NCBI GenBank assembly: GCA_030167865.1
Contig: JALAGF010000228.1
Span: 1-33,009, forward strand
Direction of reading: 5' to 3'
DNA: 33,009 bases
Source: Craspedostauros australis
Lineage: Eukaryota
This document shows positions 21,298-23,194 of this stretch, in pieces (the stretch's first letter is position 1; the number at the start of each line of letters is the position of its first letter). The notes under the pieces were generated by a model. The model was not told the DNA's origin. It searched no databases and was given only the letters and a program-made list of their open reading frames with translations. The position numbers were made by a program, and so were the translations under genes.

Positions 21298-23194
21298 CAA
21301 TATTGTTGACAATCAGACCCATCCTGGACGACCGCTGTCGTTGTATGCGAAATTGGGCATCCCAGAATTGGCAAACAAACTGCCGCAATCTTGTCTCGCT
21401 ATGGGCGATCTCGTGGGCCATCTTACTGATGTCGCCGCCAAGCATCTGGGCTTGCCAGTTGGGACACCCGTCACGCAGGGCGGTCCTGATGCCTTCGTTG
21501 GGATGATCGGCCTTGGGTGCATCCATCCCGGACAGCTGTGCCTCATCACGGGATCGTCACATTTGCATTGCATGGTGTCATCCAAGCCGACGACGGCTGC
21601 AGGAACATGGGGCGCTTACCAAGGCGCGCCCTTGCCAAGTCTCAACTTCGCCGAAGGTGGGCAATCCTCCACGGGATCCATCCTGAAATGGTGCAAAACG
21701 AAGATCTTCAACGACGACGTGGATTACAAAGAATTGGACGAGGAGGCGTCGAAGATACCGCCAGGTAGCGATGGCGTGATGGCCCTGGAGACCTTTCAGG
21801 GATCCAGGACGCCCATCACCGACCCATCCGCGCGTGGCGCCTTGCTCGGGCTGTCATTGTCGCACACGCGCGCGCACATCTGGCGTGCATGGATGGAAGC
21901 GGTGTGCTTCGGAACGCGAGGTTGCATCCAAGATGGGTTGGAGAAGGCGGGTCACGCCTGTTCCGAAATCATCATGGCGGGCGGCGCAACACGATCTCCT
22001 CTGTGGTTGCAAATGCACGCCGATGTCACAGGAAAGCCAGTGGTGGTGTGCGAGAATGCAGATGCGCCGCTCTTGGGATGTGCCATTCTCGCCAGCGTCG
22101 GAGCCGGCATTCATGATTCGGTCGATGCTGCCGTGGAAGCGATGGTGCGGCGTGTCGAACGTGTGGAGCCCGACCCCAATCACGCGCGACAGTACACGGA
22201 TCTGTACGAGAATGCGTACAAGCAGATTTCGCCGACGATTCAGCCCATCGTTCACAACCTCAGCAAGCTCCGAGGCGGTGCAAGTGGCAGTGGCGTCGTG
22301 AGCAACGAAGACGGTTCCGCCGTTTGTGCAACCGAATCGAAGCAAACGAAACGAACGAAGCACCTGACCATATCACCCTCGTTGCTGGCCTGCGATTGGG
22401 CCAGAATGGGAGAAGAGGTGGATCGGTGTCTTCGGGCAGGTGCTAGCCGTCTCCACGTGGATATCTTGGACGGTGTCTTCGTCGATTCGCCGGACGCATT
22501 CACCTTCGGGCCACAGATGGTGCGTGCTATTCGGCGTGCTTCCGACGCGAAGCATGCACAGAACGACGTGAATGGGGAGCAGGAACGACTCCATCTCGAT
22601 TTGCACATGTACGTCGAGCGACCGGCACGGTTCATTGATGCCATGGCCGACGCTGGTGCCGACACCTTCATCTTCCAATGGGAAGCCATTCCTGTGTCGA
22701 TAGATGCATCAGGTGATGGGATGAGTGGTGGATCAAGTCTGAGCAAACACGAGCAGAAGCAGAGGAACGAAGAGCGCACTCAAGAAGCAATCGGGATGGC
22801 AAAACGGATCATCGACAAGGGCATGGCCTGCGGCATCTGCATCAACCCCAGCACCAGCCTGGATGACATCCACCCCGTGCTCCAATCCGGCCTCATCTCG
22901 GTCGTCGATATTCTGGCCGTAAACCCCGGATTTGGTGGGCAGCAATTCCAAACCACCACGGTCGATCGATTGAGAGATCTTTGCGGTTTTCGGCGGCAGC
23001 ATCGTGCCGCATGCGGAGATTTTGCAATCATGGTGGACGGTGGCATCAATGCAAGCACCATTCAGCATGTCGCGGAGTACGCCGACATTGCCGTGGCAGG
23101 AACGTACGTATTCCGCCACAAGGTATCTCTGGAGGCTGGTATCAAAGATCTGCTGAATGGAGCGGCCATGGGATGGGAGGGAACGTCAATTTGA
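20468..23194 (+). CDS. Fusion protein: signal-peptide-like leader + FGGY-family carbohydrate (D-ribulose/pentulose) kinase + ribulose-phosphate 3-epimerase-like TIM barrel, 908 aa
   Basis: Single ORF. FGGY motifs from about 20639: VIGVDGGTESIRA, HPQPGWAEQEP.DW, DTTCCSVV, LLWMDARS, SAEWMIPKALW, QGGPDA, LITGSSH, FQGSRTP..DP.ARG, EAVCFGTR, AGGATRSPLWLQMHADVTG. RPE motifs from about 22364: ISPSLLACD, LHVDILDGVFV, TFGPQMV, DLHM, INPST, VNPGFGGQQF, VDGGIN, VAGT.VF. Confidence 0.93.
21245..21297 (+). repeat. In-frame (AAC)n/(GAC)n repeat encoding a poly-Asn/poly-Asp loop inside the kinase domain
   Basis: aacaagaacaacaacaacaagaacgacgacgacgacgacgacgacgacgac encodes NKNNNNKNDDDDDDDDD. Confidence 0.9.

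Follow-up and report, generated by a model that had tools for sequence, protein, structure and literature searches.

A conserved, ubiquitin-tail-like RGG motif between the kinase and epimerase of a diatom fusion protein, a probable processing site also found at periplastidal presequence ends

A contig of the diatom Craspedostauros australis (JALAGF010000228.1, forward strand; coordinates are positions in the window, the whole 33,009-nt stretch analyzed) carries a single open reading frame (ORF) in which a signal peptide, an FGGY-family kinase, a linker, and a ribulose-phosphate 3-epimerase follow one another. An initial annotation had noted that the residues LRGG, as at the end of ubiquitin, stand exactly where the kinase gives way to the epimerase, and had proposed a polyprotein cleaved there by a deubiquitinase. 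Is this short motif a cut site and, if so, for which protease? The comparisons made here show RGG to be a real, strongly selected motif, and it is probably a processing site. Pfam placed FGGY_N at amino acids (aa) 60 to 243 (92.8 bits) and FGGY_C at aa 358 to 545 (139.4 bits), both above the cut-off, and Ribul_P_3_epim (PF00834, 120.5 bits) in the same ORF. AlphaFold2 placed the final helix of the kinase at residues 570 to 601, gave residues 603 to 629 a predicted local distance difference test score (pLDDT) below 50, and began the first epimerase strand at residue 634. ORF, domain matches, and model therefore confirmed the annotated placement of LRGG (aa 601 to 604), after the last kinase helix and before a flexible linker to the epimerase. 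From alignment and model, the RGG lies between two intact enzymes and is conserved, independent of exact position, and exposed.

The test named as decisive in the annotation was whether the motif is kept in an otherwise divergent linker. Nearly all of the best 120 of 788 homologues were the same fusion, and those with a named source were from diatoms or from a diatom-bearing dinoflagellate entry. With the query added and one row without an epimerase start dropped, 120 rows with both anchors remained, of which 110 contained RGG in the linker. When the linkers were shuffled 1,000 times, RGG turned up in 2.3 rows on average and never in more than 8; the motif is thus clearly kept. No other linker 3-mer independent of RGG approached this frequency. 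R-G-G is the strict part; the preceding residue among the 110 was mostly L (76), otherwise I (8), S (7), C (4), V (4), F (3), and sometimes P. Positions after the GG were unconserved, and the distance from GG to the epimerase ranged from 2 to 79 residues among orthologues. A single RGG was present in nearly all linkers and two in 4, and an RGG/RG-box RNA-binding or methylation motif was rejected on this ground, such boxes being made up of several closely spaced RGG/RG repeats. Long linkers with a pair of RGG motifs were noted in P0013, P0025, P0070, P0084, and L150.

The motif was also followed in metagenome DNA, where 80 loci, several of them duplicates or without the junction, yielded 47 distinct junctions. 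RGG was encoded in 30 of these, using five Arg codons and three to four Gly codons; because the codons are synonymous, the constraint acts on the protein. The full-length fusion was present in the transcript-derived homologues P0129, P0186, and P0020 as well, and as the whole fusion with its RGG is found in such entries, it is not a gene-calling artefact. A motif of only four residues might arise by chance, as a splice-site remnant, or from a faulty gene model; however, the excess over shuffled linkers, the spread of synonymous codons, and a frame that is open across the junction both here and in transcript-derived orthologues leave such an origin scarcely credible.

Gly is common at helix C termini, and LRGG could have a structural role, capping the final kinase helix or forming a hinge behind it, and so serve the folding or flexibility of a bifunctional enzyme. 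In keeping with a cap, the RGG stands right at the helix end, 9 to 10 residues after the anchor, in 98 of the 110 sequences, and degenerate forms (LRCG, LRGV, VREG, and FHGG) remain at this site in some orthologues. In the other 12, however, it is displaced to 16 to 28 residues after the anchor, into the disordered linker, which already largely refutes a cap. These 12 copies are scattered over several branches of a kinase-only tree, the number of independent moves being approximate, and in the model of homologue P0067 the LRGG (residues 534 to 537) is 16 residues beyond the helix end, within a segment with a pLDDT of <50. Moreover, RGG occurred in the last 45 residues of none of 65 full-length stand-alone kinases and in only two of 17 distant fusions, and a cap leaves the presequence ends described below unexplained. 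We therefore regard a cap or hinge as improbable; judged from the stand-alone sequences, the kinase fold does not need RGG. In the stand-alone kinases the chain stops with this last helix or a little beyond it, so that a cut after G604 would leave the kinase with a C terminus of natural length.

Comparison with more distant relatives bears on the age of the site. The fusion corresponds to an atlas cluster of 353 members, commonest in Chlorophyta, and within the FGGY-RPE fusion family of algae RGG is the rule only in the diatom-like branch. A pelagophyte fusion was without it, the 17 metagenome junctions that lacked RGG were those of distant fusions, and in one list, with types assigned by eye, it was absent from 15 of 17 distant, non-diatom-type fusions versus one of seven diatom-type ones. 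RGG is missing from most fusions of the green-algal type and of other ochrophytes, so the fusion predates the motif, and the RGG site appears to have been added to a pre-existing fusion, rather than the fusion having been built as a polyprotein. One premise of the initial proposal of a deubiquitinase-cut polyprotein thus calls for revision. The proposal was otherwise partly supported, as a cut at the motif gained support from presequence ends and from one in vivo N terminus, both considered below. That the RGG is a remnant of a former presequence of the epimerase is unsupported, as no stand-alone eukaryotic epimerase of the same clade with its own RGG presequence was found among the 120 matches listed, and the older RGG-less fusions argue against it. 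Six RGG-less distant fusions (P0345, P0348, P0350, P0353, P0434, and P0465) share an SGR-x-A-x-hydrophobic motif just before the epimerase start.

The same motif recurs at the presequence ends of proteins of the periplastidal compartment (PPC), which surrounds the chloroplast and is what remains of the cytoplasm of the red-algal symbiont. The PPC set was that of ASAFind 2.0 (PMC12136025; supplementary file 4, parts 1 to 3 of 4, counted by eye), the training rows of which are homologues of localized proteins, not every one itself localized. Directly before the mature domain, xRGG was present in 12 of the 30 PPC training proteins, comprising 4 of 15 from Thalassiosira pseudonana and 8 of 15 from Guillardia theta. 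Sec14 and ptDUP of T. pseudonana, two rows that are not part of the training subset, had it as well. In G. theta, four motifs were the full LRLRGG, identical to the last six residues of ubiquitin. In the same file, an NTRC-like thioredoxin/reductase fusion of G. theta (gt_72625) has an internal PRGG between its domains and is a second polyprotein candidate.

In the C. australis genome, the motif ends the presequence in seven of nine signal-bearing symbiont-type genes examined (two Der1, two Cdc48, a TrxH-like gene, a UBA-thioredoxin-PUB gene, and a ubiquitin precursor), a count that is not blind because Der1, Cdc48, thioredoxin, and USP were chosen for the motif in their T. pseudonana homologues. 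In the ubiquitin precursor, the presequence ends in PRGG immediately ahead of the initial ubiquitin Met, matching the register of the LRLRGG found between and after the units. This precursor (L164:859-2079, minus strand; G000:C3802) consists of two identical units, with a C-terminal extension of ~135 residues after the last LRLRGG. No RGG was found in the frames examined of the C. australis host Der1 and Cdc48, of 19 other USP matches, or of thioredoxins of the endoplasmic reticulum (ER) type and the Phe type, where introns may hide first exons, and it was absent from all 63 experimentally derived stromal transit peptides. Six of 120 orthologues of the fusion also carry an RGG between the signal peptide and the kinase. 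Specificity of the motif for the PPC has one exception, TPT4b of Phaeodactylum tricornutum: this protein of the plastid envelope has an ASA-F signal, and PRGG closes its predicted presequence.

Evidence of cutting was sought in the T. pseudonana N-terminome (PMC3774753; text passages, searches in Tables S3 to S5, and Table S7 as a whole; this and the other papers are cited for the parts covered). For the ptDUP orthologue, 21460, one N-terminal peptide is listed, starting at residue 233 and acetylated in 2 spectra. By hand count, residues 229 to 232 of this model are P-R-G-G, so that the N terminus falls directly after RGG, and acetylation was taken by the authors of the N-terminome as the mark of an in vivo terminus. 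Five predicted peptides were absent from the parts of the N-terminome covered, several presumably being too short or too long for the method, and six further PPC identifiers and ubiquitin peptides were likewise absent from them. The fusion orthologue of T. pseudonana, 269446, has an N terminus at residue 22, right after the signal peptide, which indicates entry into the ER, not residence in the PPC. Targeting to the PPC is described as requiring a signal peptide without Phe at position +1, and its prediction recovers only 25% of known PPC proteins (PMC12136025). By inspection, the query and 120 homologues have a signal peptide followed by a nonaromatic +1 residue, a combination that ER proteins share. 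A term search of the P. tricornutum reference table gave no entry recognizable as a kinase-epimerase fusion.

From these observations, a mechanism can be proposed in which the precursor would enter the ER via its signal peptide and most likely pass onward to the PPC. There, a protease that recognizes (hydrophobic)-R-G-G in the manner of a ubiquitin tail and cleaves behind the second Gly may strip many PPC presequences, the cut having been shown for one protein. In the already existing fusion, diatoms would have installed this site where the kinase domain ends, such that one targeting signal could deliver two enzymes, a kinase ending in LRGG about where its free bacterial homologues end and an epimerase with a short, floppy N terminus. 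The likeliest protease would be the enzyme that processes ubiquitin precursors in the symbiont ubiquitin system, with the USP-family ptDUP as the candidate. We judge it rather probable that the fusion is cut at the RGG, as an internally reused PPC processing site that splits a polyprotein. Given a cut, the chances that a deubiquitinase in the PPC, possibly ptDUP, is responsible are about evenly balanced. The broadest form of the proposal is more tentative and falls somewhat short of an even chance: that the PPC presequence peptidase is a ubiquitin-tail-reading protease, that in diatoms and cryptophytes many PPC presequences close with a ubiquitin C-terminus mimic, and that diatoms reuse the site within the chain to import two enzymes behind one signal.

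Known systems offer partial parallels. In polyubiquitin and ubiquitin-fusion precursors, including the PPC ubiquitin precursor of diatoms and cryptophytes (SELMA), a cut after the terminal RGG frees the units of one chain, as proposed for the fusion. The conserved, exposed R-G-G is common to the fusion and to ubiquitin-fusion and ubiquitin-like (UBL) precursors, but these have a ubiquitin-like fold before the di-Gly, whereas the diatom protein has a kinase helix there and its units are two metabolic enzymes; without such a fold ahead of the motif, it does not belong to the ubiquitin-fusion proteins. The coronavirus papain-like protease, which is USP-like, cleaves the viral polyprotein at bare LXGG sites, which imitate the end of ubiquitin (PMC7883198). 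In that system, which is viral and cytosolic, the protease is part of the polyprotein, and Leu is strict and X loose, whereas in the diatom fusion Arg is strict and Leu loose. The precursors of human SDE2, FAU, TUG, and USP1 are cut after GG by a deubiquitinase or by the protein itself; in the first three a ubiquitin-like domain precedes the GG, and the GG-ended fragments are degraded through KLHDC2 (PMC8013793). The GG-ended piece of the fusion, by contrast, would be a working kinase in an organelle. In diatoms and cryptophytes, the bipartite signals of PPC proteins lack Phe at +1 and many end in xRGG, whereas the motif of the fusion is internal, ~550 residues behind the signal.

Two other readings of the conserved RGG were considered. 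In one, RGG is a recognition tag that is bound and left uncut or cut only in part, and the fusion stays whole; the tag might, for instance, dock or sort the protein at the machinery for PPC import (Cdc48 and ubiquitin-binding cofactors) and help to restart translocation of the second domain. The N-terminal stretch of the fusion is short and usually without RGG, so that an internal tag could substitute, and RGG-less fusions exist that presumably work uncut. In Toxoplasma, an RGG before the ubiquitin domain of the plastid-periphery protein PUBL was noted as a potential deubiquitinase site; when tested, it was not processed, and changing GG to AA had no effect (PMC5487736). An uncut tag is nevertheless unlikely, in view of the acetylated N terminus exactly after RGG in 21460, the unconstrained residues after GG, as in protease sites read on the nonprime side, and the RGG that directly adjoins the initial Met of ubiquitin in its PPC precursor.

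In the other, cleavage of the linker after RGG does occur, but in a different compartment from the PPC or through a protease that is not a deubiquitinase, such as an enzyme of the ER or secretory route or a dedicated PPC peptidase. Part of the likelihood given above to a cut belongs here, and this part we hold to be a minor one, a little larger than that of an uncut tag. The N terminus of 269446 is a signal peptidase product, the PRGG of TPT4b belongs to a plastid-envelope protein, and a review (PMC5756292) notes that no ptDUP homologue was detected in cryptophytes, though G. theta has the clearest LRLRGG motifs. On the other side, ER-type thioredoxin/PDI genes of C. australis lack RGG, and the match of G. 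theta motifs to all six C-terminal residues of ubiquitin (PMC12136025) points to an enzyme that reads the ubiquitin tail.

Set against the preferred reading, a cut at RGG by a PPC protease, are the unprocessed RGG of PUBL, the ubiquitin-like fold of SDE2, FAU, and TUG that the fusion lacks, the RGG-less majority of distant fusions, and several further results. RGG was missing from 10 of the 120 orthologues, with xGG kept in four of these; together with the distant fusions, this indicates that cleavage is not essential to the fusion family. Only one of six RGG-bearing PPC proteins looked up was present in the N-terminome table, and that one, 21460, is a USP with a doubtful gene model lacking a predicted signal, the N terminus of which could be the product of self-cleavage. 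In the parts of the T. pseudonana N-terminome covered, no neo-N terminus of the epimerase was found, a weak test as the linker sequence of 269446 was not at hand. The fusion is presumed to reside in the PPC; the N terminus of 269446 lies immediately behind the signal peptide, and the two G6PDH genes and one 6PGDH gene of the C. australis genome have no clear in-frame signal peptide. A signal-bearing USP with Cys and His boxes is present in this genome (L041/L036), and both this DUP orthologue and the signal-bearing Ufd1 were without RGG. Finally, a blind screen of 600 kb of C. australis DNA found xRGG in 5 of 306 non-Phe signal ORFs, 0 of 72 Phe-type ORFs, and 22 of 1,786 others (p = 0.58, with low power).

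A smaller screen (200 kb plus the window), also of low power, gave 1 of 34 versus 6 of 91. Both screens applied a crude signal-peptide rule to mostly spurious frames, and neither, with little power to do so, gave a second polyprotein with an internal RGG; at most they indicate that RGG is not general among signal-bearing proteins. A Pfam-identified DNA polymerase delta catalytic subunit (L191:8004-8954, minus strand; G000:C4837) has KRLRGG ~25 residues from its start and no signal peptide; a host-side ubiquitin-tail mimic or a nuclear localization signal is possible.

In the literature covered, no paper was found on RGG as a PPC processing motif or on the fusion as a polyprotein; coverage was thin for subscription and early PPC work, so that a prior mention is possible. 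The removal of PPC presequences has been attributed in a review to a postulated "TPL peptidase," the enzyme itself being unnamed in the sections covered (PMC5756292). If the proposed reading is true, the RGG cut site would define the specificity of this peptidase and make the symbiont deubiquitinase a candidate for it, and RGG would be a sequence marker for PPC proteins that fixes their mature N termini. The internal copy would then provide the cleanest test, because the cut is separable there from targeting. Processing of the fusion would be an organellar counterpart of viral LXGG polyprotein processing, and a three-residue tag could serve in diatom engineering to send several enzymes from one gene to the PPC.

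The enzymes themselves belong to well-known families. Fold and catalytic residues are shared with FGGY pentulose kinases (PDB 3QDK, 3L0Q, and 3IFR) and with ribulose-phosphate 3-epimerases. Using Foldseek, the kinase matched PDB 3L0Q with an E value of 3e-38, placing it among FGGY carbohydrate kinases; it differs from the ribulokinase and XylB equivalogs in reaching neither NCBIfam curated cut-off (283 of 428 bits and 262 of 380 bits, respectively). In the epimerase, H663, D665, and H713 were conserved in 105 of 105 aligned sequences and D857 in 104 of 105, and we take these residues to be the metal ligands of a His/Asp/His/Asp site. Judged from their families, the two enzymes may salvage free pentulose to ribulose 5-phosphate and xylulose 5-phosphate (Ru5P/Xu5P). 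The C. australis copy is ~100 residues longer than most orthologues, owing to the poly-Asn/Asp run listed in Table 1 and two epimerase insertions (aa ~693 to 707 and 741 to 770). Upstream of the start of 6PGDH (L156, minus strand; G000:C1728), there is an ORF of 78 residues, in frame and resembling a signal peptide, that terminates 8 codons short of the Met and could be an alternative first exon of that gene.

Table 1. Features of the kinase-epimerase fusion gene in the C. australis window
Feature	Position	Strand	Basis
Single-frame intronless ORF, 908 aa: signal peptide, FGGY kinase, linker, ribulose-phosphate 3-epimerase	20468..23194	+	ORF call, Pfam
Signal-peptide-like N terminus, aa 1 to ~47, cleavage site inferred by inspection	20468..20608	+	Sequence; hydrophobic N termini in most orthologues
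Short Ser/Ala-rich stretch after signal peptide, no Phe at +1; PPC-type or ER-type, not stromal	20609..20635	+	Sequence; PPC rule of PMC12136025
FGGY-family pentulose kinase, ribulokinase/xylulokinase-like by sequence	20636..22270	+	Pfam, NCBIfam, Foldseek
Poly-Asn/poly-Asp insertion in kinase loop	21239..21298	+	Sequence; low pLDDT at aa ~261-280
Last kinase helix, aa 570-601	22175..22270	+	AlphaFold2 model; stand-alone homologues end there or a few residues later
LRGG motif (L601 R602 G603 G604; codons CTC CGA GGC GGT), predicted cut after G604	22268..22279	+	Sequence, conservation
Disordered, unconserved linker, aa 605-633	22280..22366	+	AlphaFold2 model, alignment
Ribulose-phosphate 3-epimerase TIM barrel	22367..23179	+	Pfam, model, conserved residues

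Elsewhere in the window, the neighbors of the fusion gene include a BipA/TypA GTPase with a mitochondrial-type N terminus at 5253-7748 (plus strand) and a RING-finger protein at 19038-19820 (plus strand). Two further ORFs, at 1423-3357 (plus strand) and 30617-32257 (minus strand), have no Pfam match and share similar C-terminal regions; they resemble START-type domains.
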